NCBI GenBank assembly: GCA_027262695.1
Contig: GCA_027262695.1_4722.1
Reading direction: 5' to 3' (one strand)
Source of the DNA: a phage
Length of the DNA: 64,000 nucleotides
Below are positions 6,480 to 63,953 of this stretch, one piece after another. The position numbers were made by a program, and so were the translations under genes. The notes below the pieces were generated by a model. It was not told where the DNA came from and did not search any database. It saw only the letters and a program-made list of their open reading frames with translations. Every line of letters starts with the position of its first letter. Position 1 is the first letter of the stretch.

Positions 6480-6626
6480 CTGGTAGACTTCGGAAACCTT
6501 GAGGTTTAACCGTTCTGCCGTGATGTCGCTTTTAATAATCAGGGTGTCCGTTAGACGCTGCACGCTTTCCGAATAAAGCTGATAGTCAGTGTTGGACACG
6601 ATCGGTCCTCCAAGGAGCCAGTGTAA
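6480..6626. promoter_or_regulatory. divergent intergenic region between the 4188-6479(-) and 6627-9545(+) genes
   Basis: 147 bp non-coding gap between divergently oriented genes; aaggag SD 8 nt before the ATG at 6627; no promoter consensus could be assigned. Confidence 0.3.
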
Positions 6627-14379: not shown

Positions 14380-14418
14380 CACACACTCCTTACAGAAAGT
14401 TGCTTAAGCAGATTAAAG

Positions 14419-16043: not shown

Positions 16044-16142
16044 TTGACTTATGTATCACGGTGCCGGATGAATGTCCGGTGTAATGAAACCATCCGCAAC
16101 GTTGTTTTCAAGAACTTCATCCAACGAAGCAGCTCCGGTATT

Positions 16143-18365
16143 TCAGTTAGTCTGAACCGGCAGCTTGATGTTTTCAGTGTAGACCTTACGCAGGTTCACA
16201 ACGTTGATCAGACCCAGCAGCGGGCAGTTGTTCACGAAACGGCAGCGCGGCTGAACCATGGTTTCTTTAGAAACCTGACCGTTACGAGTAACCTGAGCAA
16301 CGGATACCAGTTCCGGTACGTACAGGAACATACCGAAGGTCAGCGGATCCGGAGAACCCTGGATACCACGAGACAGGGTCACGAAGATCTTGTCGCGCAA
16401 CATGACGTTCGGGTTGTCTACAACCACGAAGTTGAAGCTTACACCCACGGTGCGGAAGTCACCGTCGGTCTGCAGGAACTGCGGGATGTAGTTGTCGGTT
16501 GCTACTACGCAACGCGGTTTCTCATCAGCGTTGGAAGACAGCAGCTGCAGAGCTGGCTGATAACCAGACTCGGAGTACATGCGGTACGCCATTTCACGAA
16601 TCACGTTCATGATCGCAGCGGATACTTCAGCACGACGTTCTGCAGTGGTGGTACCCTGAACGGATTTCTCCAGGTCCAGATCGATTTCTTCGAACCACGG
16701 ACGAATCAGGTAACGACCGAAACCTTCGATCTGAATGTCACCGAACTGACGGAAGCGAGAAGTTGCAACCGCTTTCAGGGCGTCTTTGTAGCTGAACAGT
16801 TTCTCAACCATCAGGTTGTCGAAACGTGCGTTAGCTGCTTGGATCAGAACATCCAGGTCAGCAGCGTTTTCTTCCCAATCCAGCGGACGAGGAATGGAGA
16901 ACGGAGCCAGCAGGCCGATTGCGTAACGTTCTTGCTTCATGTTGAAGTCAAGATGTTTACCGCGTTCACGACGGTTGCTGTTGTTACGACGGATACGCAG
17001 TTCGTAACCCACCAGTTTGAAGCTCAGGTCTTCAGCCAGATCTTTGAATTCCTGGCTCTTACGCGGTTGTTCGATGTTGTCCTGGTCAACCAGACGATAC
17101 AGTTCAGCGGTAGCGCCATTAACACGCAGACCCGCTTTCTCTACGTTGGAAGAACCGTAAACTTCGATCGCCAGCTGAGCAGCAGATTTCGCATCGATGA
17201 TGTCCTGCAGCGCTTCAGCTTTCGCACCTTTAACGTCAACGGTGTTCTCATCAACGAAGATGGAGTGGGTGTCGAACGCCAGGGTCATTTTGCGGAAGTC
17301 GCCTTCCAGGGATTTCTGGAAACCGTTGGTGATCAGACCGGATACGTCGAACGGAACGTAAGAGGTTTTGCTGTGCTTGGTGGATTTAATTTCCACCAGG
17401 ATTTTGGTCAGCGTGATCTGAGCATCCAGCGCGTCAGTGTTGTCGCTGTAACCGTTAGCCAGAATGCTATCGTCTTCAGCGATACCGATCATGTCGATCA
17501 GTTTATCAACCGCCAGGTAAGACGTTTTGTAAGTAACGCCTTTGATTTCGATGTCGCGCGGAGCAACGATGGTTTTATCAACGAAGTACTGCGCGTTAGC
17601 ATCGTCAGCACGGTAGATCGGATGCAGATCGGTCACGTCGTTGGACAGAACGTCGTTGTACATGAACGCATCCAGCAGCGGACGACGTACCCAATCAGCC
17701 GGAGTACCATCACCGTTACGACGCAGGTGGTTGAACACCAGCGGACGACGGAAGGAAACGTCATAACCGATCTGGTTCGGAGCCAGAACGATGGTGTTGT
17801 ACAGTTCGTTACCCATGCGGCTCAGACGAGACGCCTTCACGTTGAACACAACGGAGTACGGCATCATGTCACGCAGTTCTTTCTGGTCGTAGGACAGCTG
17901 AACCAGTTCTTCAGATTCACAACCGCAGGAATCCGCAGCCATCATGACGAAGTTAGCGCTGTCAACATCACGGCCGGACGGCGAGGTGCTGATGTTCATG
18001 GAACGTGCTTGTTTAGCATATTCCACCGGGTTGCCATGTGCCAGCATGATCAGCGCTGCAGCGCGAGCCTGCTGTGCGTTCATGGTGAACAGCTGTTCTT
18101 CAATACGTTGCTTCTCTTCCGGAGTTGTGGTTTCGAAGCCCAGCATGGACAGAACCGGTTCTTCAGCTTTACGGATGTCGCTGCTGAAGCTCTTAACATC
18201 CATTTCGTTAACCAGTTTGTCCATGGATTTGAAATCAACCTTAGAAGCAGATTCCATAGACAGGAAGGTGTTTTCCAGACCTTTGTCTGCTGGTTTGCTA
18301 CCATTAGCGGTCAGGAACTGGCGAGTGGCCGCGACCTGTTGGCTAAGAAGGGTTTTATCATTCAT
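16143..18365 (-). CDS. putative major capsid protein (highly expressed virion protein)
   Basis: 740 aa, the size class of jumbo-phage major capsid proteins; codon usage strongly biased to CTG/CGT/GGT/AAC/TTC unlike its neighbours; helical N-terminal region resembling a propeptide; the function is inferred, not matched to a database. Confidence 0.45.
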   Translation of the reverse strand: MNDKTLLSQQVAATRQFLTANGSKPADKGLENTFLSMESASKVDFKSMDKLVNEMDVKSFSSDIRKAEEPVLSMLGFETTTPEEKQRIEEQLFTMNAQQARAAALIMLAHGNPVEYAKQARSMNISTSPSGRDVDSANFVMMAADSCGCESEELVQLSYDQKELRDMMPYSVVFNVKASRLSRMGNELYNTIVLAPNQIGYDVSFRRPLVFNHLRRNGDGTPADWVRRPLLDAFMYNDVLSNDVTDLHPIYRADDANAQYFVDKTIVAPRDIEIKGVTYKTSYLAVDKLIDMIGIAEDDSILANGYSDNTDALDAQITLTKILVEIKSTKHSKTSYVPFDVSGLITNGFQKSLEGDFRKMTLAFDTHSIFVDENTVDVKGAKAEALQDIIDAKSAAQLAIEVYGSSNVEKAGLRVNGATAELYRLVDQDNIEQPRKSQEFKDLAEDLSFKLVGYELRIRRNNSNRRERGKHLDFNMKQERYAIGLLAPFSIPRPLDWEENAADLDVLIQAANARFDNLMVEKLFSYKDALKAVATSRFRQFGDIQIEGFGRYLIRPWFEEIDLDLEKSVQGTTTAERRAEVSAAIMNVIREMAYRMYSESGYQPALQLLSSNADEKPRCVVATDNYIPQFLQTDGDFRTVGVSFNFVVVDNPNVMLRDKIFVTLSRGIQGSPDPLTFGMFLYVPELVSVAQVTRNGQVSKETMVQPRCRFVNNCPLLGLINVVNLRKVYTENIKLPVQTN

Positions 18366-18514
18366 TGAAAGTATCCTTTACAGATTTAACTTATATAAGT
18401 CGGTCGATAGACCATAGCGTACACGCGTGCATGCGCCACTATAGTATCAGTAAACACTTACCGTTATTGAGGTTGTGATACAACACTAAAAATGCCGCAT
18501 AACTTTTCCCTACG
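18366..18514 (-). promoter_or_regulatory. upstream region of the putative capsid gene with palindromic sites
   Basis: 149 bp gap; contains the palindrome cacgcgtg (18422-18429), gcatgc, and a tatataag box about 30 nt before the ATG; tgtaaagga SD 8 nt before the ATG. Confidence 0.3.
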
Positions 18515-19135
18515 TCACAAACGACGCAGGCGATAATGGATGGAACGATTGGTGCAATATGAACGGAACAGCGGTAATTGCGCAACTTCCGCAAGACTCA
18601 TATTAATTCGCAGATGTTCGATAACCGCGCTGTAGTTATCGGCGATACGATCGCTCAGTAACTCTTCTGCCAATAAAGGAAGACAATCGACAACGATGGC
18701 GATCACATCCTCATTAACATAACGCACCCGAACATTGAGTGGACGTTTGTCTGGGCCGTAAGTTGGATCCGCCAAACGACGTTCAATATCGCGTGGATAG
18801 CTCGTCAGTAAATGGTAATAACCATTGTCATAACGATTGATGTACTCACACAGCACATCAACATTCTTCTCTGGCGGCAAACCTGTTTCGTCATAGTGAT
18901 ACGCAAACATACCACCAAGCAGGTTGTTAAGATGAACAGCCGCATTCGTTTGTTCGTGTTCTTTCGTAATGAAGAAAGGCACGTTCTGAGCTGCGAAATA
19001 AAAACCTACATCATTGGGCGATAGTATGCCGAAAAGACTTTTAGGATCCAACAGCACCTGTAAGTCATCACGCGCATTTCGCATAATCGCGTGTTCTACC
19101 CAATTCGGAACGACGAGATATCGGAGTTCCTTCAT
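18515..19135 (-). CDS. hypothetical protein
   Basis: 206 aa ORF. Confidence 0.55.
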   Translation of the reverse strand: MKELRYLVVPNWVEHAIMRNARDDLQVLLDPKSLFGILSPNDVGFYFAAQNVPFFITKEHEQTNAAVHLNNLLGGMFAYHYDETGLPPEKNVDVLCEYINRYDNGYYHLLTSYPRDIERRLADPTYGPDKRPLNVRVRYVNEDVIAIVVDCLPLLAEELLSDRIADNYSAVIEHLRINMSLAEVAQLPLFRSYCTNRSIHYRLRRL

Positions 19136-19171
19136 TATGATTACCTCTTTGTAAGTATCGAAAGGATTGAG

Positions 19172-20785
19172 TCGATGGACCCAAAACAGATAGCCATTAA
19201 GATTATTACGTTACTGTTTCGTAATGCACAATTGAACCATCCCGATCCCAGTACGATCGAACATGTTAAATCCGTCTTAGATAAAATCGAACCCCCGAAA
19301 AACCATCTCACCGTTGATGTGGATAGAGAGGTTTTCAACAACCTGATGAACACCATTCATTGGATGTTGGAACAACCGTTATCGGAACCTTTCGATAAAC
19401 AACAGTTGCTACAAAGGATACGTTTAGATTGCCTGGAACAAAGCCACGTTTACGAAATTCTCGCCGACGGATTGTACGATATCGAAGACGATGCTCATAT
19501 CAGTAAGGTCTGTTCGCTTTACTACAATGAATTACGTAATCTGATTACCCGTCGTCGTGTATTTGAAACCTTTAAAAACACGTACATGGATATCAGTAAC
19601 GGCCGCCTTGGGGACAAAGAATTTTTCGACGCGATGGCGAATTTGAAACTATCGCTAGATACCATCGAAATGGATACTGAAAACCCCGAAGAAATGTCCT
19701 GTATGATTGACGGCTTCATCGCTGATAGTGAAGACGATATTGAAAAAGTCGAACGTATGTTCGTTAAGGCGATGGAGCGTAACAGTCCTGAAGGGGGATT
19801 TGTCACCGGCTGGCAGGGGTTTAATAAAATGTTGGGGTCGGTCGGCGTATTACGTCGTGGTACTCTAGGATTGATTGGTGCGATGCAACACCGTAATAAA
19901 TCAGGGGTGTTATTAAAACTTTTCACCCACCTGGCGTTGTACAATAAACCCCATTTCTTTTTTCCGGAGCGCGCAAAGAAAGCCTTATTGATTCATCTCT
20001 CAACAGAGAACGAAGTTGAAGAAAACACGCTTCAAATCTACAAGAACATGCGAGAACAGGAAACAGGTGAATATGTCGATATTCGTAAGATTGACCCACG
20101 TGAAGCTTCACGCTATGTACTGAACGTTTTCAATAATGCGGGGTTCTCTGTCTGCATGCGTCGTGTTGATGGAATGAGCTATAAACAACTTGCTAACCTT
20201 ATCGACCATTTTGAACGTATGGGTTATGAAGTTATGGCTTTGTTCATCGACTATCTAAAAATGTTCTCGTCAGAAGGATTAGATAGGAATGGGCCTACGG
20301 GCGCTTGGCTGCAAGAACTCTTCAACAAAGTACGTAACCTCTGTAGCGTTAAACGTATTTTAGGTATGACCGTACACCAGTTGTCTTCTGATGCGAAGAT
20401 GCGGGCACGTGATGGTAACGATGAAGAATTTGTTGACCAAGTCGCCGGTTTAAGTTACTGGGATGGATGTAAAGGGATTGACCGTGAGATTGACCTTGAG
20501 GTAATTGTTGATATCGTTAAGGAACCTGGCAAACGTCAAAGCTGGCAGGTCTTTGCGCTAGGGAAAGACCGTCAACCGGATAACGGCTCAACAAAACCTG
20601 AAGATAAACATTTTGCGATGCCGTTCCAAACCATCGGGATGCTTCCTGACGATTACGGTAAGAAAGCGGTGTATTGCCGCAAGGTTGGCGGACAACCGGT
20701 CTCTGAAGGAGGCAAAGGTCCGTGGAACAAGTTTGATGAACATGCCGCACCGAGTAATGAACTACAATTTGATTTAGAATTCTAA
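19172..20785 (+). CDS. hypothetical protein
   Basis: The track ORF starts at 19091 but overlaps the minus gene; the ATG at 19172 with aaaggattg SD is the likely start; about 537 aa; followed by hairpin 20813-20843. Confidence 0.6.
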   Translation, partial: SMDPKQIAIKIITLLFRNAQLNHPDPSTIEHVKSVLDKIEPPKNHLTVDVDREVFNNLMNTIHWMLEQPLSEPFDKQQLLQRIRLDCLEQSHVYEILADGLYDIEDDAHISKVCSLYYNELRNLITRRRVFETFKNTYMDISNGRLGDKEFFDAMANLKLSLDTIEMDTENPEEMSCMIDGFIADSEDDIEKVERMFVKAMERNSPEGGFVTGWQGFNKMLGSVGVLRRGTLGLIGAMQHRNKSGVLLKLFTHLALYNKPHFFFPERAKKALLIHLSTENEVEENTLQIYKNMREQETGEYVDIRKIDPREASRYVLNVFNNAGFSVCMRRVDGMSYKQLANLIDHFERMGYEVMALFIDYLKMFSSEGLDRNGPTGAWLQELFNKVRNLCSVKRILGMTVHQLSSDAKMRARDGNDEEFVDQVAGLSYWDGCKGIDREIDLEVIVDIVKEPGKRQSWQVFALGKDRQPDNGSTKPEDKHFAMPFQTIGMLPDDYGKKAVYCRKVGGQPVSEGGKGPWNKFDEHAAPSNELQFDLEF

Positions 20786-53717: not shown

Positions 53718-55028
53718 TTACGCGATGATGGAGTCGAGTTTCGCTGACGCTTTGAACAGATCGTTGTTCATTGTTGAAGAAAGGACTTGCTGAATCTCTT
53801 CCTGTTTAACGGCTTTACGAACCCCAGGACGAAGGATAAGCGTAACCATCTGCGAGAAGGTACGATTATTGTTCATCACACTCAGTGTTTCATCGATTGT
53901 TTTGATGGTATCCAACGTCATGGAACGAACATCGCTTGGGATATCACGATCTTTCAGGCGTATGATTAAATCTTGTTTGATTTTACGGAATCGTTCCATG
54001 TCGTTATCGTAAATGTTGTATGTTGGATCTAACCAAACCGAAAGCGCGGTTACCGCTACAACAACTAACACGCCGATAGCACCAACAGAAGCTAAACCTA
54101 TCGCCATCATGGAGACGATAGTAGCATCCATGATGAAGGAGAGCCAGAACATCGTTTTGGACTTCATGGAGTTGGTACCATAAAGTCGAAACATTTTAGC
54201 AAGCCCGCTAACGAGATACTCCCCACCACCATGACGCGTAGCGAACTGATCAGCCATGAATTCGGAAGCAACGTCGGTATAGCGTCCAGCGTTGTTGACA
54301 TTTCTTAACTGCATCGCTTTGTTAGAAACATAAACCGTGTACCAGACATTACCATCGTCTGAATCGCTGATTTTGTTTACGTCGACGTTAGTATCCAGCG
54401 TTTTGTTTAACGCCTTAGCCAGTTCAATACGTTTTACCTTATCGGTTGTCCCTAGCAGTTCACGCTGTACAGTCATGATTGAGGCTTCAACACGAACCGT
54501 TTCCGATAATGTTTCAAGGAAAGTAAATGCGTGCCCGATTTCATGCAGCATTATGGCCGCTTTTTCTTCCGGAATAAATGGTTCTGTCGCTGTTAGCAAT
54601 TCATACGTGATGGCGGAACGAATCTTCAATTCCTCAAAGATACCGTAAACACGACCTTTTTCTAAATCGACATAACCGACAGGCGTATCTTTAATCTTCT
54701 TAAGGAGTGTGACACCATCGGCACCGCGCATCCATAATCGATGATAGTCTGCCATGATCGTGTTGTTTGTCGAAATATCCGGCGGGTACACGTAGGCGTT
54801 CATCTGGCCCATTTTCACATCAACCGAAAATTCGATGTTCAACCCTGTATAGCGTTTAACCATCTCGGTTAAATGACCGTCCTTGAAAACGTTTAAAACC
54901 TCTTTTTTATCCAGTCCTTGTTTGCTTCTGAAGAACTCGGTCATTTCCTTGAACAAAGAACCATCCTGGAATTTGATGGCCTCCATCGTTAACTCGTCAT
55001 GACCATACACACGTTGTAGTAATGACAT
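53718..55028 (-). CDS. membrane-anchored zinc metallopeptidase (HExxH, M48/HtpX-like architecture)
   Basis: 436 aa; HEIGH zinc-binding motif in MLHEIGHAF; hydrophobic transmembrane block WLSFIMDATIVSMMAIGLASVGAIGVLVVVAVTALSVWL. Confidence 0.5.
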   Translation of the reverse strand: MSLLQRVYGHDELTMEAIKFQDGSLFKEMTEFFRSKQGLDKKEVLNVFKDGHLTEMVKRYTGLNIEFSVDVKMGQMNAYVYPPDISTNNTIMADYHRLWMRGADGVTLLKKIKDTPVGYVDLEKGRVYGIFEELKIRSAITYELLTATEPFIPEEKAAIMLHEIGHAFTFLETLSETVRVEASIMTVQRELLGTTDKVKRIELAKALNKTLDTNVDVNKISDSDDGNVWYTVYVSNKAMQLRNVNNAGRYTDVASEFMADQFATRHGGGEYLVSGLAKMFRLYGTNSMKSKTMFWLSFIMDATIVSMMAIGLASVGAIGVLVVVAVTALSVWLDPTYNIYDNDMERFRKIKQDLIIRLKDRDIPSDVRSMTLDTIKTIDETLSVMNNNRTFSQMVTLILRPGVRKAVKQEEIQQVLSSTMNNDLFKASAKLDSIIA

Positions 55029-55210
55029 TTTACACTCTCTAAATTTACGTAAATTTAAGGGTTGGTTAAAAGCAGGTTGGCTGGCCTCGCCAATCTGTCA
55101 CAGCCGTTGTGCTGCAACGGCATTCATAGAAATACCTTCGGTTAAAAACAACAGAACGTGAGGATGATATAGAAATTCACCTTCTAACCTTTATTAGAGT
55201 CTATCACGTT
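55029..55210. promoter_or_regulatory. divergent intergenic region containing a hairpin
   Basis: 182 bp between divergent genes; inverted repeat gccgttg-tgctg-caacggc near 55102-55120; no promoter consensus assigned. Confidence 0.3.
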
Positions 55211-56710
55211 ATGAGCGAACAAGAACAAAAACTCAAGAAGAAACTGCTCGGTATTCAATGTCGACACATCAGTTATAACGAAGCCAACGACGGCAGTAAG
55301 AACGATCTCATGATTGCAAAAGAGATCATGTTCTTCGATGACAACACACAAGCCACCAACCTGCGGTTCTTTGAAAACCACAAACGTCCGTTTTGGGTTA
55401 CAGTTGAAAGCAAACGTAAGAACAAATATAAAAAGGAAAGCGAGAAGCTCTCAAACGTACGTCGTTATGAGGTACGCCAAAGCGAACTGGTTGAGAAAAT
55501 CAGTTCGGTGCTTTATAAACGACGTGCTGACGATAACACCCGTTTACAACAGCTTGCGCGGAGTCCTTACCTCTATGGAACGGACGTTAGCGCCAGCTGC
55601 TATTTAAAAACCCAGTACAATACAAAATGGCCGGAATACGTTGATAAACTGCCTGCTTCTATCGCATGTTTCGATATCGAAACCGACGTTGTCCACGGGC
55701 ACGGTAAGATCGTTTGTATGTCTATTACAATGGGCTACAACGCGATTCTTTGTTACACCCAGGACTTCGTTGGTCATATTCCGAATGCGATTGAGAAAAC
55801 CCGTGAGAAGATTCGTTATTACCTGGCCGACCGTTTAAACACCAAAGAGGATCCTCACGCCTTTGAAAAATACCATTACGATATTCGCATTGTAGAAAGC
55901 CCTGCGCAAGCGGTGATTCAATGCATGCAGAAGGTGCACGAATGGCAGCCGGATTATCTCCTTGGCTGGAACATCGCGTTCGATATTCCGCGTATGCTCC
56001 AGGCATTGCAGGACGAAGGTTATCGTCCCGAGGATGTTTTCTCCGATCCTCGCGTACCACCGAAATACCGTTTAGCACGTTGGGTACCCCCGAAAACCGA
56101 CAAGGTATCGGCGTCAGGTCGTAAAACCAACCTGACGCTTGAACAGACCTGGCCGATGTTTTATACGATGGCCACCTATCAAGTCATGGATGCCATGTGT
56201 GGTTATAAGTTCGTTCGTTTAGGAAGACCGGATGAAGGACGCTACTCACTCGATGCGGTGTTAGAGCGTAATAAATGCCATACGAAATTAAAAGCAATTC
56301 CTGGTACAGAAGGGTTCACAGAGCTCGCCTGGCACGAAGAGATGCAAACGAACCATCAAATCGACTACGGCGTATATAACCTTTGGGATAACCAAGGTAT
56401 TGAGGCGTTGGACCAGAAAACAAAAGACTATTCGATGACCATCCCGATTCGTTTAGCGGCGTCGGATTTGAAAGATTTCAGTTCCAACCCTAAACGTATC
56501 TGCGATAAACTTTTCTTCGTTTATCTTAACCGTGGGGAAGTCATGGGATGCACCGCCGACGACATGACCCAGGAAGAAGATAAATGGGTTATCTCACGAG
56601 CAGGACATATCGTCACATTACCGTGCGATCTCATGGCGGACAACGGCATTCATCTCTTCTGGGATATGCCGAATCTAAGAAGCTATATTCGATTATTTGT
56701 TGCGGATTGA
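55211..56710 (+). CDS. family-B-DNA-polymerase-type 3'-5' exonuclease domain protein (exon 1, split polymerase candidate)
   Basis: 499 aa; Exo I CFDIETD, Exo II LLGWNIAFDIPRM, Exo III YGVYNLWD; no polymerase motifs A/B/C present; the 3' end may include intron-derived sequence. Confidence 0.6.
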   Translation: MSEQEQKLKKKLLGIQCRHISYNEANDGSKNDLMIAKEIMFFDDNTQATNLRFFENHKRPFWVTVESKRKNKYKKESEKLSNVRRYEVRQSELVEKISSVLYKRRADDNTRLQQLARSPYLYGTDVSASCYLKTQYNTKWPEYVDKLPASIACFDIETDVVHGHGKIVCMSITMGYNAILCYTQDFVGHIPNAIEKTREKIRYYLADRLNTKEDPHAFEKYHYDIRIVESPAQAVIQCMQKVHEWQPDYLLGWNIAFDIPRMLQALQDEGYRPEDVFSDPRVPPKYRLARWVPPKTDKVSASGRKTNLTLEQTWPMFYTMATYQVMDAMCGYKFVRLGRPDEGRYSLDAVLERNKCHTKLKAIPGTEGFTELAWHEEMQTNHQIDYGVYNLWDNQGIEALDQKTKDYSMTIPIRLAASDLKDFSSNPKRICDKLFFVYLNRGEVMGCTADDMTQEEDKWVISRAGHIVTLPCDLMADNGIHLFWDMPNLRSYIRLFVAD

Positions 56711-56777
56711 GAAAGAAGTCGGTTAAGTTTTACTTCCTTATTCGATATGTATGATACTAAACGAGTAAGGAGTTGAT

Positions 56778-57884
56778 ATGTCTAGTAGTTACGAGTATCC
56801 AAATATTACTGAATGTGTAATTTCTGAAGAAGGTATCTTCGACCTTGATATGAAACCGTTACCGCTTATCGTGGAAGACGGGATTTCATACGTCAAGCTT
56901 GACTGGTATCGCGGTCCTGGATTGTACGATGCGGGTCTTGTTGTAATGCGTAAGTTACACGCTATCAACATATACGAAGACCTGTTAGATGAAGCACATT
57001 CGCTGTATATCGATGGAAACCCGGAAAACATCAAACGTGATAACCTGCTTTATCGTTTTAAGAACGGTAAGTTGGAACATAAGGGTTACCCAGGCTATTA
57101 CTACGTCCCGTTCTTTACACATTACGTGATAAATGAACAAGGCGAAGTGATCAGTCTATTAACGGGTCAGAAGAAATCGTGGACACGATCAAAAGGAGAT
57201 CCAAAGCGAAACAAACGCGCAGGGTATCTCTATCAACGTGTCGTTAACGACAACGGCTTCACAGCCCAGATGTTTCAACACCGTGCGATGGGTTACGTGT
57301 TCTTGGAATACGGTGCCGATGTGATGACTAAGATCATCAATCACAAGAACGGCATCAAATGGGATAACCGTCCCGGCAACATTGAATGGACAACCTATTC
57401 CGAGAACAACAAGCATGCGGTTGATAGCGGTCTTCGTACCGAAGGCTTGCATCCCGTTAAGGTTAAGGATTACAACACCGGTGAAATCAGGGTATTCCCA
57501 ACGATCGCTGCGTGCTGTGCTGCTTACCCTTGCTTGGAACGTAAACGTGTTTGGTATTGGATGACGCGTAAAACGAAATTCATGCCAGCCTGCAATCTGT
57601 ATTTCAAAGAAGTCGATGATGATACACCATGGCCAGAATGGCAGATTGGACAGCACCGCCGTCTTCAGGAATACGATATGGGCCAGCCTATCGCTGCTAT
57701 CGATAAACAAACCGGTAAACGTTATGTGTTCGCATCAGTCGCTCATGCACAACGAGAGACAGGTGTTTCTAACGTGACTATCACGAAGTACTGTCGTAAC
57801 AGACTCACAGAAGGTCGTTCCCCATTCATCTTCCGTTATTTCGAAGATGTCGGCTCGATGCCTGTAGGTCTTAACGACGCTTAA
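56778..57884 (+). CDS. HNH homing endonuclease (HNH_3 type), intron-encoded
   Basis: 368 aa; strong taaggag SD; catalytic motif INHKNGIKWDNRPGNIEWTTYSENNKH; located 5' of the group I ribozyme core. Confidence 0.75.
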   Translation: MSSSYEYPNITECVISEEGIFDLDMKPLPLIVEDGISYVKLDWYRGPGLYDAGLVVMRKLHAINIYEDLLDEAHSLYIDGNPENIKRDNLLYRFKNGKLEHKGYPGYYYVPFFTHYVINEQGEVISLLTGQKKSWTRSKGDPKRNKRAGYLYQRVVNDNGFTAQMFQHRAMGYVFLEYGADVMTKIINHKNGIKWDNRPGNIEWTTYSENNKHAVDSGLRTEGLHPVKVKDYNTGEIRVFPTIAACCAAYPCLERKRVWYWMTRKTKFMPACNLYFKEVDDDTPWPEWQIGQHRRLQEYDMGQPIAAIDKQTGKRYVFASVAHAQRETGVSNVTITKYCRNRLTEGRSPFIFRYFEDVGSMPVGLNDA

Positions 57885-57889
57885 CCGAT

Positions 57890-58240
57890 TTTAGGTCCCG
57901 GTGGGGATAACGCCCCCACCGGTTTCCCGTTAATTGCTGGAACCCCCTAAAGCCTTTCGACCACAGCGGATTCTGAAAAGAAAGACGTTACGGTTAGAAA
58001 ACAGAAAGGATGTTCGTAAGGAAACGATAAATGGGCAATCAGCAGCGAAGCTTCTAAGGGCATGCATAAGCAATAAGACCTAAGAAGAACGTTCAACGAC
58101 TATCCGGTCGCGCGGAGTAAGGGACAAGCGTCCTCAAACACGGGAGGGGTGCGAAAGCATTCCATGATATAGTCTGCTCCTAAGTGAAAGCTTAGGCGGG
58201 TGGAACACACCGGCATAAGAGTTGCGTCTTATGTGGACAA
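57890..58240 (+). ncRNA. group I intron catalytic core (IA-like)
   Basis: P2-like hairpin ccggtgggg-ataacg-ccccaccgg (57898-57921); P aattgctggaa (57932-57942); Q aatcagcagc (58037-58046); R gttcaacgacta (58091-58102); S gatatagtc (58166-58174); P9-like hairpin cctaag-tgaaag-cttagg. Confidence 0.65.
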
Positions 58241-58282
58241 TGGCTTGACATCTCATCATCCTACCCTAACGGGCAGATCCTT

Positions 58283-58498
58283 TTGAATCTATCCAGAGCG
58301 TGCGTATTTCGTGAGCTTTCACGGATTGAGGGCGTCTCTGATTATCAATTCAGGAAGCTGGGTATTAACTTCATCACGGGCGGTAAAACGAATGCGGTTG
58401 ACTTCTGCCGAATCGTTCACAAAGCCCCGTCGATGTTCGAACTGTTAGCGCATTTTGACGCAACACGTCCGAAGGAAGCGCCAAAGACCCTTGATTGA
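58283..58498 (+). CDS. candidate 3' exon of the intron-interrupted exonuclease gene
   Basis: The frame is open from 58196 (TAG at 58193-58195 lies inside the intron P9 stem) to the stop at 58498; the track start is TTG; same frame as exon 1 given an intron length divisible by 3; about 75-100 codons. Confidence 0.35.
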   Translation: MNLSRACVFRELSRIEGVSDYQFRKLGINFITGGKTNAVDFCRIVHKAPSMFELLAHFDATRPKEAPKTLD

Positions 58499-58536
58499 AT
58501 TGAAACATTCAAAAAAAAAAAGAAACGCATGCGAAG

Positions 58537-58568
58537 CCCCTCCCCTGGCGGAAGCCGGAGGGAGGGGT
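58537..58568. terminator. conserved GC-rich hairpin (family copy 10) flanked by an A-tract and T-runs
   Basis: cccctccc-ctggcggaagccgga-gggagggg; A11 at 58511-58521 and gttttatgcgttttatgc downstream; between convergent genes. Confidence 0.65.
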
Positions 58569-58584
58569 GGAGGTTTTATGCGTT

Positions 58585-59070
58585 TTATGCGCGTTCGCTG
58601 CTAACCATGACTTTATAATCAGCGTCGGTTAAGAAGATAGACAGGAATCCATGTTCTTTGCAAAGCTCACTAAGGACCTCGGTAATGATTTCATTGATCA
58701 ATGGTTTATTTGCGAGAGCGTAGATATACCCATCAGTAAAAGAAAGGGCATGTTTAATCATCGGCTCATGAGACACCAGGACAAGGATCACATGGTGTTG
58801 ACCATCATCGGTAACGACCGCTTGCGTCGACACAAAGAAACCAGTGAAGCCGCATTGGTAACTGGCTTTAGGGATATATAAATCACCTAAAGCTTCGTCA
58901 CGCGCTTTCATGTGGGTTTCAGGCGTGATGCTACTAAGCTGATCTTCGGCGATATCCAGAGTCTCTTCAACGGTTTTCAGAATGGCTTCTTTGAAATCCT
59001 TGCGGTAGACCTGGATAATTTCACGGTCGTTGATGTAATCGCCGGATTCGATGGTAAAGTTCAAGTTCAT
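58585..59070 (-). CDS. small protein, tandem paralogue family D
   Basis: 161 aa; N-terminus MNLNFTIES... resembles the family D N-termini. Confidence 0.5.
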   Translation of the reverse strand: MNLNFTIESGDYINDREIIQVYRKDFKEAILKTVEETLDIAEDQLSSITPETHMKARDEALGDLYIPKASYQCGFTGFFVSTQAVVTDDGQHHVILVLVSHEPMIKHALSFTDGYIYALANKPLINEIITEVLSELCKEHGFLSIFLTDADYKVMVSSERA

Positions 59071-59122
59071 TTTTAAAACTCCTGATTTATGTGTCGATTG
59101 ATTGACGTATTGATTTATGTTT

Positions 59123-59141
59123 GAAGGTGTTGTTCACCTTC
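59123..59141 (-). terminator. hairpin 2 nt downstream of the stop of the 59143-59601 gene
   Basis: gaaggtg-ttgtt-caccttc. Confidence 0.35.
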
Positions 59142-59142
59142 G

Positions 59143-59601
59143 TTAGATATCATCCGGTGTATATTCGATGTTGTAAACGACGTAACGGTCTGACGCATGA
59201 ACGACGAGCTCGACGGGGAAATCATAATGCTTGGTTTTGTCTCGAACATGCTGGGTAAAGAGATCCGTATAACGGATTAAGTCTTCCACGGTATACTCAG
59301 AAGGGAAGAAGACATCGATGGTTATTGACTTTTCATAGAGGCGTATGACCAGCTTATCCAGAAGGTTGGCATATTGGTTACACGGGGCGACGTCCAGAAG
59401 ACAGAAATCACCGTCTTCTGCGTCTCGTGGTATCCACATCGTGGTATCTTGTAACGACGTTTCAAGGATCTCGAAAATGCAGTCTGCTGTAAGTCTTAGT
59501 TTATCTGTTATTTCACGGTTAGGTGAATAATGGTCACGAATGCTTTTCACTGCGTCTTTGATGGAGAAAGTCATCGTTGATGTTCCTTTAAAAGATATCA
59601 A
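59143..59601 (-). CDS. small protein, tandem paralogue family D
   Basis: 152 aa; MTFSIKDAVKSI...FEILETSLQD aligns with SVKSIAEAA...FDYLESSLQD of the next gene. Confidence 0.55.
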   Translation of the reverse strand: MISFKGTSTMTFSIKDAVKSIRDHYSPNREITDKLRLTADCIFEILETSLQDTTMWIPRDAEDGDFCLLDVAPCNQYANLLDKLVIRLYEKSITIDVFFPSEYTVEDLIRYTDLFTQHVRDKTKHYDFPVELVVHASDRYVVYNIEYTPDDI

Positions 59602-60124
59602 GCCATGAGGATGGGGAAACCAGTTCGCTTGTAAAACATTGCGTACCGTCGGTATTTACCGCATGGGTAAGTTTATAAGCCTTAACGGCCGGTTTACTGC
59701 CGATGGTGAGGACGGTTGTCATGTCGAGCCATTCGGCACGATGGAGAAATGCCATATCAGCCACCTTCTGTAGACCATTTGCTTCAAAATCGATACGGTC
59801 GTTAAGCGGCATCAATCGGATTTCAATACGTTCTTTGAAGAGTTGAAACGTTACTGAAAACTCATGCGGTTTGGCATTAAGACATAAAGGCCCTTGATGG
59901 AAGTGTTGGTATGCTTCATTCTTGTTATGCTCGAAAACCCAGCAGTTGTGGACAAGAGAAGCGTCTTGTAACGAGGATTCCAGGTAGTCAAATACCTTGT
60001 TTATTGTTTGCTCGAGCAGAGACGCTAATGAATCTGGATATCCAGCAAATGCTGCTTCGGCGATCGATTTTACTGAAATGGTATTGTTCTGGTTCATCTC
60101 TTTATTCCTTGTCGGATTCGTCAA
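59588..60124 (-). CDS. small protein, tandem paralogue family D
   Basis: 178 aa; shares the SLQD-containing N-terminal helix. Confidence 0.55.
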   Translation of the reverse strand: MTNPTRNKEMNQNNTISVKSIAEAAFAGYPDSLASLLEQTINKVFDYLESSLQDASLVHNCWVFEHNKNEAYQHFHQGPLCLNAKPHEFSVTFQLFKERIEIRLMPLNDRIDFEANGLQKVADMAFLHRAEWLDMTTVLTIGSKPAVKAYKLTHAVNTDGTQCFTSELVSPSSWLDIF

Positions 60125-60554
60125 TGTATTTGGTGTCGTAAGACATATGCTGGATTAATTTTCTAGGCTCGATGAAAATACGACACGAGATAAATACATC
60201 GGGATCATACTGCTCTACACAACGCCCGAAAACCAGCTTTGCAGTCTGGCGCATCAAGGCTATTTCCCGATCATTCATCTCATTATCGAATTCGATGTTT
60301 ATCGTGATTTTATCAGGAAATAAATAGATAGAGTAATTGCCACTAATACCACCATCATCAAAACGATAATCGTTGTGGTAATGGTGAAGCTTACCGTCGT
60401 GTGTCGTCTGGTACCATCCGATGATACTATCAAGTCCCACACCCAAGCGGCGTTCGAATGCCCAATTAATAACATCCTCGACAACGGATGCGGGCGTGGG
60501 ACCATTGAATAATCTATCCAGACGCTTTTTCATCGATTTGGTTTTCACGTTCAT
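60102..60554 (-). CDS. small protein, probable family D member
   Basis: 150 aa ORF within the array. Confidence 0.5.
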   Translation of the reverse strand: MNVKTKSMKKRLDRLFNGPTPASVVEDVINWAFERRLGVGLDSIIGWYQTTHDGKLHHYHNDYRFDDGGISGNYSIYLFPDKITINIEFDNEMNDREIALMRQTAKLVFGRCVEQYDPDVFISCRIFIEPRKLIQHMSYDTKYIDESDKE

Positions 60555-60584
60555 TGTTTCTTTTCCTGTTATAGTCGGTATACA

Positions 60585-60618
60585 GCCCTTCCCCGGCCTT
60601 GATGGCTAGGGAAGGGGC
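60585..60618. terminator. GC-rich hairpin (family-related copy 11)
   Basis: gcccttcccc-ggccttgatggcta-gggaaggggc followed by ctatg. Confidence 0.5.
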
Positions 60619-60630
60619 TATGTTACGTTG

Positions 60631-61032
60631 TTACGCTTCGCAATCAGCTGAAGATGTTGCACGCTTCTTGCCATCAAAATGCCAAAGTAGACACGCTGGG
60701 AAGAGGCAAACATCTAGAGTGCAAGGGATGTCGTATTTTTCTTCCAGTTCGTAAAGACAATCCGCGAGCTGCTTTCGTGCATTCTCATCGTGTCGTAATG
60801 CGATATGACCTAATCGTTGTTGGTCGTTCTTTACATATACCTCGAAAAGTATGTGTTGTTGAAAAGCATTGATTCGTACCCCTTCAAGTATATCGGTGTC
60901 GAGCATGCGAGTAAAACTCATTGCTGTCGACGATGTCGAGGTTTCTTGTTTAACCAGATCGATCATGGTGGGAATATACGAATGGTCGATGTTATCGACG
61001 ACCGCTTTAGCGACGGAATCTGCAATGTTCAT
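60631..61032 (-). CDS. small protein, probable family D member
   Basis: 133 aa ORF; N-terminus MNIADSVAKAVVDNI. Confidence 0.5.
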   Translation of the reverse strand: MNIADSVAKAVVDNIDHSYIPTMIDLVKQETSTSSTAMSFTRMLDTDILEGVRINAFQQHILFEVYVKNDQQRLGHIALRHDENARKQLADCLYELEEKYDIPCTLDVCLFPACLLWHFDGKKRATSSADCEA

Positions 61033-61062
61033 CTTTAATCCTTAATGTTATCGTTACCGTAT

Positions 61063-61482
61063 TTAGGTGGTTTTCGGGTTATGTTCGTATTTGACGATCG
61101 TTACTGGAATATTACAATGGTCGAAACAGTTGAATGAAATTGTTGTTGGGATTTCGAACGCCATGACTTTGGCTTTAATATACCCGATTAAGTCGTCTTC
61201 GATAAATAAAACCTCAGGCTTATCGTTAGCATCGACCCAAACATCAACACAGAGCTTGTCGTTATTGGTCAGTACGTTGATAGTGTACGTACTGCCGTCC
61301 ATGTGAATATGCGATCTTCTACAAGAATTGAGTAGAGCAGTCGGACTATTCACAGTCGCCCGCAACTGGTTGCTGGTCTGGATCGTGTTCAGGACATCAC
61401 GTATGATGTTATCTACCAACGTAAATAGTTTCTTAGTAACGTTCTCTTTTAGAAGCTGTATCAAAGAAACAGTTGCGGTCAT
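61063..61482 (-). CDS. small protein, probable family D member
   Basis: 139 aa ORF; N-terminus MTATVSLIQLLKENV. Confidence 0.5.
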   Translation of the reverse strand: MTATVSLIQLLKENVTKKLFTLVDNIIRDVLNTIQTSNQLRATVNSPTALLNSCRRSHIHMDGSTYTINVLTNNDKLCVDVWVDANDKPEVLFIEDDLIGYIKAKVMAFEIPTTISFNCFDHCNIPVTIVKYEHNPKTT

Positions 61483-62243
61483 TTACGATCCTCTTTAACA
61501 ACAGATGTTACCCACGACGTGATGGCTGGATGAAAACAGAGGGTGAAGGTGACGGATGTTTTATATCTCGATGCGCAGTTTCGCAGTCGTGTTTCGAAGA
61601 TCCTTTTCGATTCAAGATCGTTGTTGTCGATAACAGACAAACCGCTTACTATCCCAATAACGTTGATGCCTTTGTCTGTCTGAGTTGTGACGATGCGCCG
61701 TAACGGTTCATACTCGTAGCTGTACACGCACCCATTCTTAGGACCGGGTGTCGAACTGGCTGCACGGGCGACAGCAACTAACATATCGACAATACGATCG
61801 ATTCGAGTCCTTGCGTTGTCACTGCCGGTCTCGGTTGAGATTTCTTTCGTATCGAATATTATTACTCCGCTATCGTTAGATCCCGTGGGGAAACACATAG
61901 CTAAACGAATAGGATATTCGTACATTGAGGTTCTTTTTTGGAAAATTTCAGATAGATGTTGTTCATACGTCAACACATCAACATCATCTAGAGATGGGGG
62001 TAATACAGCCTGAATAATAACGCCGTCATCGGTTAAACCGATTCCCAGGAGACGTAGTTTATTGTCGCTTGGTACTGTTTTCTGGAGATATGCTTTACCG
62101 TTAACGATATCGGTATCCCACGTATCTTCACATAACAAATTTTCAAACCGATCGAAAATATGGTCTACGGTATCGATGAGTTCTGTGACACGTCGTTGTT
62201 GGTTGGTTTCAATCAATTGTTGGATTCTTTCTTTGATAGACAT
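61479..62243 (-). CDS. protein of family D (longer member)
   Basis: 254 aa; ATGA overlap with the downstream gene. Confidence 0.5.
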   Translation of the reverse strand: MSIKERIQQLIETNQQRRVTELIDTVDHIFDRFENLLCEDTWDTDIVNGKAYLQKTVPSDNKLRLLGIGLTDDGVIIQAVLPPSLDDVDVLTYEQHLSEIFQKRTSMYEYPIRLAMCFPTGSNDSGVIIFDTKEISTETGSDNARTRIDRIVDMLVAVARAASSTPGPKNGCVYSYEYEPLRRIVTTQTDKGINVIGIVSGLSVIDNNDLESKRIFETRLRNCASRYKTSVTFTLCFHPAITSWVTSVVKEDRK

Positions 62244-62245
62244 GA

Positions 62246-62698
62246 TTACTCCTTAGTTCCTTCTTTGTCGGCTTTATACTCCACACAGTGGAATTCACAT
62301 TCATCGATAAACCTGAGTGTTACTGTAATAGGGAAATCACGCGGCGAAGCGGATTTCTTAAATGCGCTATCAGCAACATCGGATAATCGACGTATGGTAT
62401 TCACTCCTTTCGCCACGAACGGGAATTTAATGTTAATAAGGATACGGTGTTTGTAAATAGTAAAGACGACGGTGCTGTCGAAATGCACACCAGTTAAAGT
62501 CATTGTTGGGATGCGTTTTACGACAGAGAAATATGTCCCGTCAATATCGCTACTTCCCACTGACCATTCATCGGAATTGCGCAGACTTCCCTTGAGGAGT
62601 TCAACGCTTTGCGTGACCACCTCAGCAACCTGTGCGACGTAGGTGTCTTTGTGCGTATCGAACAGTTCATTTACGCTGGATTTGAATGAAAAAGCCAT
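62246..62698 (-). CDS. small protein, tandem paralogue family D
   Basis: 150 aa; MAFSFKSSVNEL closely matches MTFSIKDAVKSI of 59143-59601. Confidence 0.55.
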   Translation of the reverse strand: MAFSFKSSVNELFDTHKDTYVAQVAEVVTQSVELLKGSLRNSDEWSVGSSDIDGTYFSVVKRIPTMTLTGVHFDSTVVFTIYKHRILINIKFPFVAKGVNTIRRLSDVADSAFKKSASPRDFPITVTLRFIDECEFHCVEYKADKEGTKE

Positions 62699-62742
62699 TG
62701 CCGTGATCCTACCTTTTCTTTATCTGTGATAAAATTGTTTAT

Positions 62743-62764
62743 GTGTTCCCTCTTACGGGAACAC
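62743..62764 (-). terminator. hairpin downstream of the 62772-63287 gene
   Basis: gtgttccc-tcttac-gggaacac perfect 8 bp stem. Confidence 0.4.
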
Positions 62765-62771
62765 GTCATTA

Positions 62772-63287
62772 TTAACTATCGGCTTTGCTGTCCTCTGGAT
62801 CGTAGCGGAATTCGAATAGTTCCGATCCGTCGTGCCCTGCTATTGTCAACATAATCGGCATGTCGAATCCTCGAGCGCGCGAATGGAAACATTGCGCTAA
62901 TTTTATTTTCGCATACGCCGCTACTTCGTTGGTCGCTATACGAGACTCGCCTGAGATGCTGAGTATGATATCAATACTAACAAGGTCGTCGTGTAGCGCA
63001 AAACGCCAGCGATCGATACGGGGATTATCGGCAGCAAGCGATTCGTTTACAAGATAGACTTTTTCATCGAACGACACGGCAGGACTCCAGCATTGTTCGT
63101 TCAACAGACATGTCTGAAGTCTTGAAATCGTCAGATCGATGATGTCCCAGCACGCAACCAGCGTCATATCGGATACGAGATTGAGAAGTTCGTGTACGCG
63201 ATCTTTTATTTTTAATGCCTCTCCTTGCGGACGTCCGCAAATACCGTGTGCGTCCACTTTCTTATTAACTTCGTTACTCATAATCAC
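62772..63287 (-). CDS. small protein, probable family D member
   Basis: 171 aa ORF. Confidence 0.5.
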   Translation of the reverse strand: MIMSNEVNKKVDAHGICGRPQGEALKIKDRVHELLNLVSDMTLVACWDIIDLTISRLQTCLLNEQCWSPAVSFDEKVYLVNESLAADNPRIDRWRFALHDDLVSIDIILSISGESRIATNEVAAYAKIKLAQCFHSRARGFDMPIMLTIAGHDGSELFEFRYDPEDSKADS

Positions 63288-63347
63288 CTCTTTTTTAATC
63301 TAAATGTTCGTTGGGATTGTTTACCATTTGGCGTCAGCTTAAAACGA

Positions 63348-63953
63348 TCACATGCTTCCCAGCACGTTCATAAGCATAGAACCCATACGGGAGCTCAAAT
63401 TCGACGCGCCGGTGTATTCAGCCAGTTGGCGATAGACCTCTTCTGGGCTGTCTTCTTCGCCGTCAGCGTTGATATAGACCGAAAAAGAGAGCAGGTCAGT
63501 ATCCACGTTGACCAACAAACGTCGTTCATTACGATCCTTCAGGTTTTCGGTAATCGCAGCTTTCAACAGATCCAATGCGTTAATTGCGCGCAGGATATCT
63601 GTATCCGGGCTCTCTAGGGTGATTTTACCTTTCAGATCGATGTTGACTTTGGTGACTACCGGACTGAGATCGACTTTAACGTGTTTGTCGGGATTCATGC
63701 GAATAACCGCGCGGTCGATATCCGAACCGAAGAACGCGATGGTTGGGTCCAACGCTTCGTTGTTCGGATCCATGTTCTCATCCATACCTGCCTGCAAGAA
63801 ACGTTCTACGTTATCCAATTCACGATAAACCGACTCTTCGATTTCCTTCAGGTAGTTTGCTGCGGTCTCATGCTCTTTACGCAGCTCGTCTTTAAGGAGC
63901 TGTACGGTGGCTTCACTGGAACGAATGCTGTTAACGAATTGGGTGATAGACAT
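63348..63953 (-). CDS. small protein, tandem paralogue family D
   Basis: 201 aa; MSITQFVNSIRSSEA resembles the family D N-termini; the array probably continues beyond the window. Confidence 0.5.
   Translation of the reverse strand: MSITQFVNSIRSSEATVQLLKDELRKEHETAANYLKEIEESVYRELDNVERFLQAGMDENMDPNNEALDPTIAFFGSDIDRAVIRMNPDKHVKVDLSPVVTKVNIDLKGKITLESPDTDILRAINALDLLKAAITENLKDRNERRLLVNVDTDLLSFSVYINADGEEDSPEEVYRQLAEYTGASNLSSRMGSMLMNVLGSM

Follow-up and report, generated by a model that had tools for sequence, protein, structure and literature searches.

We describe here a gene at positions 55211-58498, on the plus strand of a 64-kb stretch of phage DNA (64,000 nucleotides; contig GCA_027262695.1_4722.1 of assembly GCA_027262695.1; hereafter the window), which we take, with a probability of about 0.88, to encode DNAP-N, which is the N-terminal of the two subunits that make up the family B replicative DNA polymerase of chimalliviruses, to be split by a mobile group I intron, and to form a composite active site with the second subunit, DNAP-C. 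The window is from a relative of Escherichia phage vB_EcoM_Goslar, a nucleus-forming jumbo phage (chimallivirus): Goslar is the best match in the phage collection to region 55000-58700, with 88.7% nucleotide identity over the aligned 56% of that region, and no other phage matched. A first-pass annotation had presented the 499-amino-acid product of the first open reading frame (ORF) as an exonuclease-only fragment of a family B polymerase that might be split, leaving a choice between a polymerase domain encoded elsewhere and a stand-alone proofreading exonuclease. The label "exonuclease-only" is wrong, since the spliced product bears polymerase motif A, and the evidence from the intron, the second exon and the motifs places the gene in an already known split-polymerase system. 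What is new is that the intron and the second exon are missing from the Goslar annotation, and that the interrupted codons are a recurrent site of introns.

Motif A and the splice junction

The ORF at 55211-56710 (499 amino acids) is confirmed in the ORF list, and its coding part forms exon 1 (55211-56707, residues 1-499), which comprises the family B N-terminal domain, the 3'-5' exonuclease domain and the strand running into motif A, and ends with the codon GAU for D499 (56705-56707). It is followed by a group I intron of 1,536 nucleotides (56708-58243), which opens with an in-frame UGA, and by exon 2 (58244-58498), whose 84 codons encode residues 500-583 before the stop; the first-pass annotation had estimated this candidate exon at about 80 codons. 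All three lie on the plus strand. U56707 ends the 5' exon and G58243 is the last base of the intron, and its excision restores the reading frame to give a product of 583 amino acids. Exon 2 supplies the remainder of motif A, an NLSR(A) segment that aligns with NISPET of phage RB69, and a C-terminal helical tail. Against the 576-position profile phrog_3011 ("DNA polymerase"), exon 1 covers positions 4-494 (E 2.5e-149) and exon 2 positions 495-571 (E 2.9e-18), such that the two exons meet seamlessly between positions 494 and 495.

The boundaries were set by this profile continuity, by comparison with Goslar and by a gap-free alignment to L006, a metagenomic contig of 237 kb that lacks the intron. 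L006 encodes the homologue P0001, which has 583 amino acids, is 96% identical to the spliced product and reads RLFVADLDISSSYPN / SYIRLFVADLDISSSYPNGQ at the junction region. Once 56708-58243 is removed, the window is collinear with L006 without a gap, and this fit fixes exon 1, intron and exon 2 as given above. The junction DNA is GCAGAC/CTTGAC in L006 and GCGGAT/intron/CTTGAC in the window; the intronless insertion site of the L006 type is GTTGCAGACCTTGACATTAGCAGTTCATAC, and the tryptic peptide predicted across the spliced junction is LFVADLDISSSYPNGQILLNLSR. Another junction, RLFV/LDISS with exon 1 ending at 56701, is two codons short and is ruled out by P0001. Both exons are closely related to those of Goslar (96.6% amino-acid and about 89% nucleotide identity), and the protein sequence of exon 2 is identical or near-identical in Goslar and L006. 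In total 176 DNAP-N homologues were found, and most of the 120 listed are uninterrupted proteins of 555-640 amino acids that include the motif A segment.

The splice point falls inside motif A (...FVAD/LDISSSYPN). The motif core, D501-I-S-S-S-Y506-P507-N, occupies 58247-58270 on the plus strand, and with D499 at the end of exon 1 and the nine codons 58244-58270 at the start of exon 2 it makes up the sequence ADLDISSSYPN. This explains why the first-pass annotation saw no motif A in either exon: D499 closes exon 1, and the remaining residues are encoded by the nine codons that open exon 2, before the first start-like codon at 58283, from which an ORF reading would begin. That annotation had itself looked to polymerase motifs in the spliced product as the observation that would tell against it, and such a motif straddles the splice site. 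D499, D501, Y506 and P507 are invariant in 66 homologues, and a search of all six reading frames of the window for the pattern D..S[LMIS]YP returns this site and no other. In the profile alignment, residues 404-430 of RB69 gp43 (YKYVMSFDLTSLYPSIIRQVNISPET) face the family consensus rahvaDLDvsstYPnaevilNiskett, which puts D501 opposite the catalytic D411 of the RB69 motif D411-LTSLYPS.

The catalytic core of a group I ribozyme (57871-58196, plus strand) is found in the 3' part of the interruption, matching the Rfam model RF00028 over its full length (positions 1-253) with a score of 69.9 bits, where 50 is the gathering score (E 1e-16), and is the sole Rfam match in the window. With this core, the intronless homologue and the continuity of the profile, the intron that the first-pass annotation implied in speaking of two exons is real. 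According to the mechanism that we propose, transcription would give a precursor RNA from which the ribozyme would excise 56708-58243, with the 5' splice site after U56707 and the 3' splice site after G58243, joining GCG GAU to CUU GAC and removing the in-frame UGA with which the intron opens.

A split at the level of the protein, by an intein or by trans-splicing, has been described for Pseudomonas phage MIJ3, in which an HNH gene lies between two polymerase ORFs and was read as part of a split intein (PMC6892783), and an intein was the only match, weak (E 0.45) and spurious, of a single-sequence phmmer search against the PDB. In the window, by contrast, the exons are separated by a canonical group I ribozyme; the endonuclease has an ORF to itself, out of frame with the exons and with its own Shine-Dalgarno sequence (AAGGAG, 7 nucleotides upstream of the start); and alignment with intronless homologues brings the exon ends together exactly, with no intein blocks. 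The intein explanation is thus effectively refuted in favour of an RNA intron.

The exonuclease half and the break in the palm

The first-pass annotation had assigned the protein to the N-terminal and 3'-5' exonuclease domains of family B polymerases, and this character is well supported. Three exonuclease motifs are invariant among the homologues, all encoded on the plus strand: Exo I (D155-I-E157 in FDIETD, 55673-55681; invariant in 66 homologues), Exo II (N254-x3-D258 in WNIAFD, 55970-55984; aligned to the Exo II region of RB69 gp43) and Exo III (Y389-x3-D393 in YNLWD, 56375-56389; aligned to RB69 gp43 residues 270-380). Pfam is nearly blind to the protein: its sole match is DNA_pol_B_exo1 on exon 1, weak and under the cut-off (E 0.023), and exon 2 has no Pfam match. 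Given this, and given the spurious result of the single-sequence PDB search, profiles were needed. A search of the kind that the first-pass annotation had proposed, with profiles and with family B and DnaQ-like exonucleases as the possible outcomes, matched family B polymerases. The top PDB match of a profile of 66 homologues is RB69 gp43 (E 1.6e-5), with Exo II, Exo III and motif A collinear, even though the pairwise identity of DNAP-N to RB69 gp43 is only 14-16%.

Structure prediction, likewise proposed at the outset, gave the same answer. As a stand-in for the spliced product we used the AlphaFold model of the 96%-identical intronless P0001, which has a mean predicted local distance difference test (pLDDT) score of 86.6 and is confident for residues 1-460. 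The listed top Foldseek matches of this model are all family B polymerases (RB69/T4 gp43, Pol epsilon and E. coli Pol II; E 6e-13), as are the significant profile matches in the PDB; none of these is of the DnaQ type.

These matches bear directly on the alternative that the protein is a stand-alone exonuclease, according to which the unspliced 499-amino-acid chain, ending at the UGA at 56708, acts in trans on a separate polymerase and exon 2 is irrelevant. The intron's first triplet is indeed a stop, so that an unspliced mRNA would yield exactly this protein; RefSeq lists Goslar gp068 as a protein of 499 amino acids; and Iyer et al. describe the exonuclease of such phages as separately encoded (PMC7824862). 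Yet Goslar and L006 share 100% of the exon 2 protein sequence although synonymous changes are clustered there, exon 2 belongs to the family profile, most of the listed homologues carry its segment uninterrupted, the four motif A residues are invariant, the ribozyme core is intact, and DNAP-C lacks a motif A aspartate of its own, as described below. With motif A present and with fold and profile matches to family B polymerases and not to DnaQ-type proteins, we consider a stand-alone exonuclease very unlikely and return to DNAP-N as one half of a polymerase.

Motifs B and C were found by regular-expression search neither in the spliced product nor in the 64-kb window, which agrees with the first-pass annotation and extends its negative result for the product to the whole stretch. 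Of the two possibilities it had raised, a polymerase domain encoded elsewhere is what the closest sequenced relative displays: in Goslar the rest of the polymerase is gp244, a protein of 717 amino acids encoded at 174314-176467, adjoining the nuclear shell gene and about 93 kb from gp068. Goslar gp244 matches the Pfam family PF20286 divDNApol ("Divergent Family B DNA polymerase") over its full length (E 2.4e-204), and contains motif B at K152 (KLDNNSLSG), motif C at S404-DTDS (D405/D407) and KxY at K484 (K484-NY). The search for an ORF with the missing motifs, which had been suggested for motifs A, B and C together, thus located B and C on Goslar gp244, and no ORF with B or C in the 64-kb window. 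One window ORF, at 12583-14382, came into question as the missing half on account of its "polymerase" label; it was rejected as a homologue of PhiKZ gp123, an RNA polymerase subunit, without family B motifs.

The notion of a split DNA polymerase therefore stands as far as the separate encoding of the rest is concerned, but the break does not fall where the term exonuclease fragment had put it. The DNAP-N alignment ends near RB69 residue 430. For gp244, a profile built from 52 homologues picks up RB69 at residue 438 and continues from there; its alignment to Pol delta starts about 30 residues past the Pol delta motif A. From these alignments the natural break is inside the palm, between the motif A strand and helix and the pre-finger hairpin, and not between the exonuclease and polymerase domains. 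On the N-terminal side of motif B, no acidic residue is invariant in the gp244-family profile. Taken with the break in the palm, this leaves DNAP-N as the source of the motif A aspartate; DNAP-C would contribute the motif C aspartates, which makes the active site probably composite. No protein of fused length is present among the 120 listed of the 176 DNAP-N matches, nor among the 112 DNAP-C matches, and so the split looks universal in the chimallivirus clade. In the proposed arrangement, the 583-amino-acid product would bring the N-terminal domain together with an intact proofreading exonuclease of the DEDD type, and also the palm's first strand, which bears motif A (ADLDISSSYPN); DNAP-C (divDNApol), encoded far off and outside the window, would add the fingers (motif B), the remaining palm (motif C DTDS and KxY) and the thumb; and the polymerase active site would hence be shared between the two chains.

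Several observations weigh against this reading. The motif A segment taken alone aligns only weakly to RB69 (i-Evalue 3e2); the alignment is credible because it is collinear with the other segments and because its residues are invariant. The motif A region (residues 467-514) has a pLDDT below 50 in the AlphaFold model of the isolated chain, and with model confidence low there the placement of motif A in the active site rests on the RB69 alignment; a low score in the lone subunit also fits a site completed by another chain. A tblastn search of the window with Goslar gp244 gave a best E of 0.5, and an exact-match scan of viral contigs for the exon-intron junction came back empty, so that DNAP-C of this phage is deduced from Goslar, and formation of a DNAP-N/DNAP-C complex is expected by analogy. 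The intron pairings drawn by eye are short: P1 would have 3-4 bp (GAU/U with AGUC at 56717-56720) and P10 about 3 bp (CUU with AAG at 56713-56715), leaving the assignment of the guide sequence tentative. Finally, splicing in vivo is so far a prediction from sequence. This last point also favours the idea that the gene has been inactivated by a mobile element and splices to no effect, another polymerase being used, for the insertion is 1.5 kb long, carries its own ORF and disrupts the reading frame. However, the intron scores far above the Rfam gathering threshold over the full model, and both exons have undergone only changes of the kind left by purifying selection, as the identities to Goslar show (96.6% for amino acids against 89% for nucleotides). 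Goslar, which is viable and experimentally studied, has an intron at the same site, and DNA polymerase genes are among the conserved core genes of chimalliviruses (review PMC12908238). Nor was another DNA polymerase gene identified in the window, the "polymerase" ORF being an RNA polymerase subunit and the search with gp244 being empty. We give inactivation hardly any weight and hold to a functional DNAP-N gene interrupted by a splicing intron.

Intron endonuclease and recurrent insertion at motif A

The intron contains an ORF for a predicted homing endonuclease of 368 amino acids (56778-57884, plus strand) with an HNH_3 domain (34.4 bits; cut-off 24.8) and a NUMOD1 domain (25.4 bits; cut-off 22.8). 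The protein also falls into HNH endonuclease families of PHROG and has a weak I-HmuI_NUMOD-like match in Pfam; no significant sequence relative was found among solved structures. It is most closely related to the endonucleases that occupy this insertion site in Goslar (42% amino-acid identity) and in the distant metagenomic phage L007 (38%), and the other intron endonucleases of Goslar are more distant from it. The Goslar intron sits at the identical site (GCGGAT/TAA...AAGAG/CTCGAT), is 1,762 nucleotides long and reaches 44.7 bits in Rfam, under the gathering score; apart from short conserved segments of about 30-80 nucleotides, its DNA cannot be aligned with that of the window intron.

A comparison of Goslar with the intron-minus L006 hints at how such introns move. 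Along the gene the two are 97-100% identical, whereas the 120 nucleotides spanning the insertion site (positions 1441-1560 of the DNAP-N coding sequence; Goslar L001 about 4691-4747 plus 6510-6572, against L006 4441-4560) are only 72-82% identical, and all the changes are synonymous. This looks like the pattern expected of homing with co-conversion, or of escape of the target site. Presumably the HNH/NUMOD1 endonuclease nicks or cuts intronless alleles at the conserved motif A codon, the intron sitting two codons before the catalytic aspartate, and the predicted cleavage would drive homing with co-conversion of the flanking exon sequence. For the window protein itself, endonuclease activity is predicted from its domains.

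The same codons are interrupted in other phages. About 29 of the 120 listed homologue clusters (176 were found) stop at VAD, VADLD, VADLDxxxG or DWI, and when three of these were checked in DNA, all three contained group I introns. L007 has an intron after VAD/ (5465-7900; Rfam 29.3 bits) with an HNH ORF and an extra ORF of 215 amino acids inside, and L008 has an ORF-less intron two codons downstream, after VADLD/ (5477-5910; 27.0 bits). L009 has two ORF-less introns within 5381-6310, one after DDWI/ at a second hot spot, DWI/VTLP, and one after HVAD/; one L009 intron scores 65.9 bits and the second 47.1. Only one of these four matches, that of L009 at 65.9 bits, reaches the gathering score of 50. 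Together with Goslar, these cases mark the codons around motif A as a recurrent target of introns in the DNAP-N family.

It is tempting to go further and to propose that the AD/LD codon is a long-standing homing hot spot with its own HNH lineage across distant chimalliviruses, that the intron is currently mobile in Goslar-like phages, that its endonuclease may be a weapon similar to PhiPA3 gp210, directed against the DNA polymerase gene of co-infecting intron-minus relatives, and that splicing efficiency could set the ratio of the 499- to the 583-amino-acid protein. We consider this combined proposal rather unlikely. More speculative still is its last part, the idea of two isoforms, which derives from the in-frame stop at the start of the intron: the 499-residue form would be an exonuclease without the catalytic aspartate, and the 583-residue form the subunit competent for polymerization.

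Known systems, flanking features and implications

In the report on phage PhiKZ (Basu et al., bioRxiv 2026, PMC13648687), DNAP-N and DNAP-C are described as a stable 1:1 family B core, with a structure at 2.1 Å, and the polymerase as having in addition an RNase H/clamp-like accessory subunit, Rhc. The likeness is that two separately encoded subunits make one family B polymerase in nucleus-forming jumbo phages, and the difference is that a group I intron with an endonuclease splits the N-subunit gene of the window. Through its match to phrog_3011 the window protein falls into the N-subunit family of PhiKZ DNAP-N, PhiKZ itself entering the comparison by its description. Iyer et al. (2021) had defined the family B polymerase of group 1 jumbo phages as a divergent one whose exonuclease has its gene elsewhere (PMC7824862). 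As to Rhc, Goslar encodes a 508-amino-acid "ribonuclease", gp190 (L005 47088-48614, minus strand), with an RNase HI domain and a long C-terminal part, which may be its counterpart; a tblastn search of the window with gp190 found no homologue.

The orthologous locus of Goslar consists of gp068 ("DNA polymerase", 499 amino acids) followed by gp069 ("NUMOD1 domain protein"), and it shares with the window the intron site and the downstream hairpin described below; it differs in the length, Rfam score and endonuclease of the intron, as given above. In the Goslar record (NC_048170) the DNAP-N intron and exon 2 are unannotated, although two other group I introns (Intron_gpI) are annotated there; we place the intron at L001 4748-6509 and exon 2 at 6510-6764, corresponding to about 81187-82948 and 82949-83203 of the record. 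Our literature search found no mention of the DNAP-N intron, and the word "intron" is absent from the Goslar genome paper.

RB69/T4 gp43, the top match by sequence profile and by fold, aligns its D411-LTSLYPS...NISPET with DLDISSSYPN...NLSRA of DNAP-N. It differs in being one chain of 903 amino acids, while DNAP-N ends shortly past motif A and RB69 from about residue 438 matches another protein. Other family B polymerases made of two gene products are gp43A/gp43B of Aeromonas phage Aeh1 and PolB1/PolB2 of Methanothermobacter; in both the break likewise falls in the polymerase half, and the lineages are unrelated to the one described here.

Introns with HNH endonucleases are also known from other phage DNA polymerase genes, namely I-HmuI of SPO1/SP82, I-BasI of Bastille and I-PfoP3I of Pf-WMP3, as the titles in the reference lists of PMC11620839 and PMC12908238 record. 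These resemble the present case in having an intron and an endonuclease of the HNH/NUMOD type at a conserved site of a replicative polymerase gene, and in that related phages have similar introns with highly divergent ORFs. The host genes of the SPO1 group encode family A polymerases, in contrast to the family B polymerase of the window. Closest in setting is PhiPA3 gp210, the HNH endonuclease of a group I intron in the virion RNA polymerase gene of a chimallivirus (Birkholz et al., Science 2024, PMC11620839). There as here, an essential polymerase gene of a chimallivirus is interrupted by such an intron, HNH endonuclease included, and an intron-minus relative exists as a potential target; the host gene is an RNA polymerase there and a DNA polymerase here.

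Downstream of exon 2 lies a GC-rich hairpin (58522-58586, between convergent genes), composed of an inner stem at 58537-58567 and an outer, A/T-flanked stem. The inner hairpin has a stem of 13-14 bp, and with the outer A/U-flanked stem the fold has an energy of -41.6 kcal/mol (z = -5.6). The first-pass annotation had called a hairpin after the gene conserved, and so it is: the inner hairpin is identical in Goslar and L006 while the flanks diverge. It occurs only once in the window, flanked by the stop codons of exon 2 (58498) and of the convergent ORF on the minus strand (58585), and is followed by U-runs on both strands. A terminator scanner did not call the hairpin at 58537, owing to the scanner's rules on loop and tail; it was revealed by folding. 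The hairpin is most likely a bidirectional intrinsic terminator, and nothing links it to the intron.

Beyond the hairpin, ten small genes of similar size (133-254 amino acids) occupy 58585-63953 on the minus strand and correspond roughly to the hypothetical genes that follow gp069 in Goslar (gp070 onward). Within this run the gene at 59143-59601 has a faint similarity to those at 62246-62698 and 62772-63287 (E about 3e-4), and the run may be an array of very diverged paralogues. Elsewhere in the window, the ORF at 12583-14382 (minus strand, 599 amino acids) is an orthologue of Goslar gp039 ("polymerase", phrog_2943), and it is homologous to PhiKZ gp123, one of the subunits of the non-virion RNA polymerase (PDB 7OGP chain E, E 6e-41). 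The ORF at 19091-20785 (plus strand) encodes a divergent DnaB-like replicative helicase (Pfam PF20307 divDNAB, E 1.6e-120), and in group 1 jumbo phages this helicase accompanies the divergent family B polymerase. These two genes of the window, and the nuclear shell protein and PhuZ of its relative Goslar, make up the chimallivirus context. Two further ORFs, at 16044-18368 (plus strand, 774 amino acids) and 16143-18365 (minus strand, 740 amino acids), run antiparallel and overlap almost completely, where the GC content of the window is highest (52%); from its position, the one on the minus strand should encode the major head protein (Goslar gp041), and the other should be a shadow ORF.

The known picture of chimallivirus replication is unchanged by these results, whose new value is modest and lies in a corrected gene model, for Goslar too, in locating the split with respect to motif A, and in the intron hot spot. 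The Goslar reference record truncates DNAP-N at 499 amino acids, without intron and exon 2, an error that propagates and is corrected here. The subunit that has been called an exonuclease would itself supply the motif A aspartate, with the split cutting the palm, and this matters for mutagenesis, for targeting Goslar-type phages by inhibitors or CRISPR interference, and for reading the PhiKZ structure. Independent introns at one codon, together with a patch resembling co-conversion in an intron-minus sibling, offer a natural system for studies of homing, and the same system would suit the study of a possible intron-mediated competition inside the phage nucleus.

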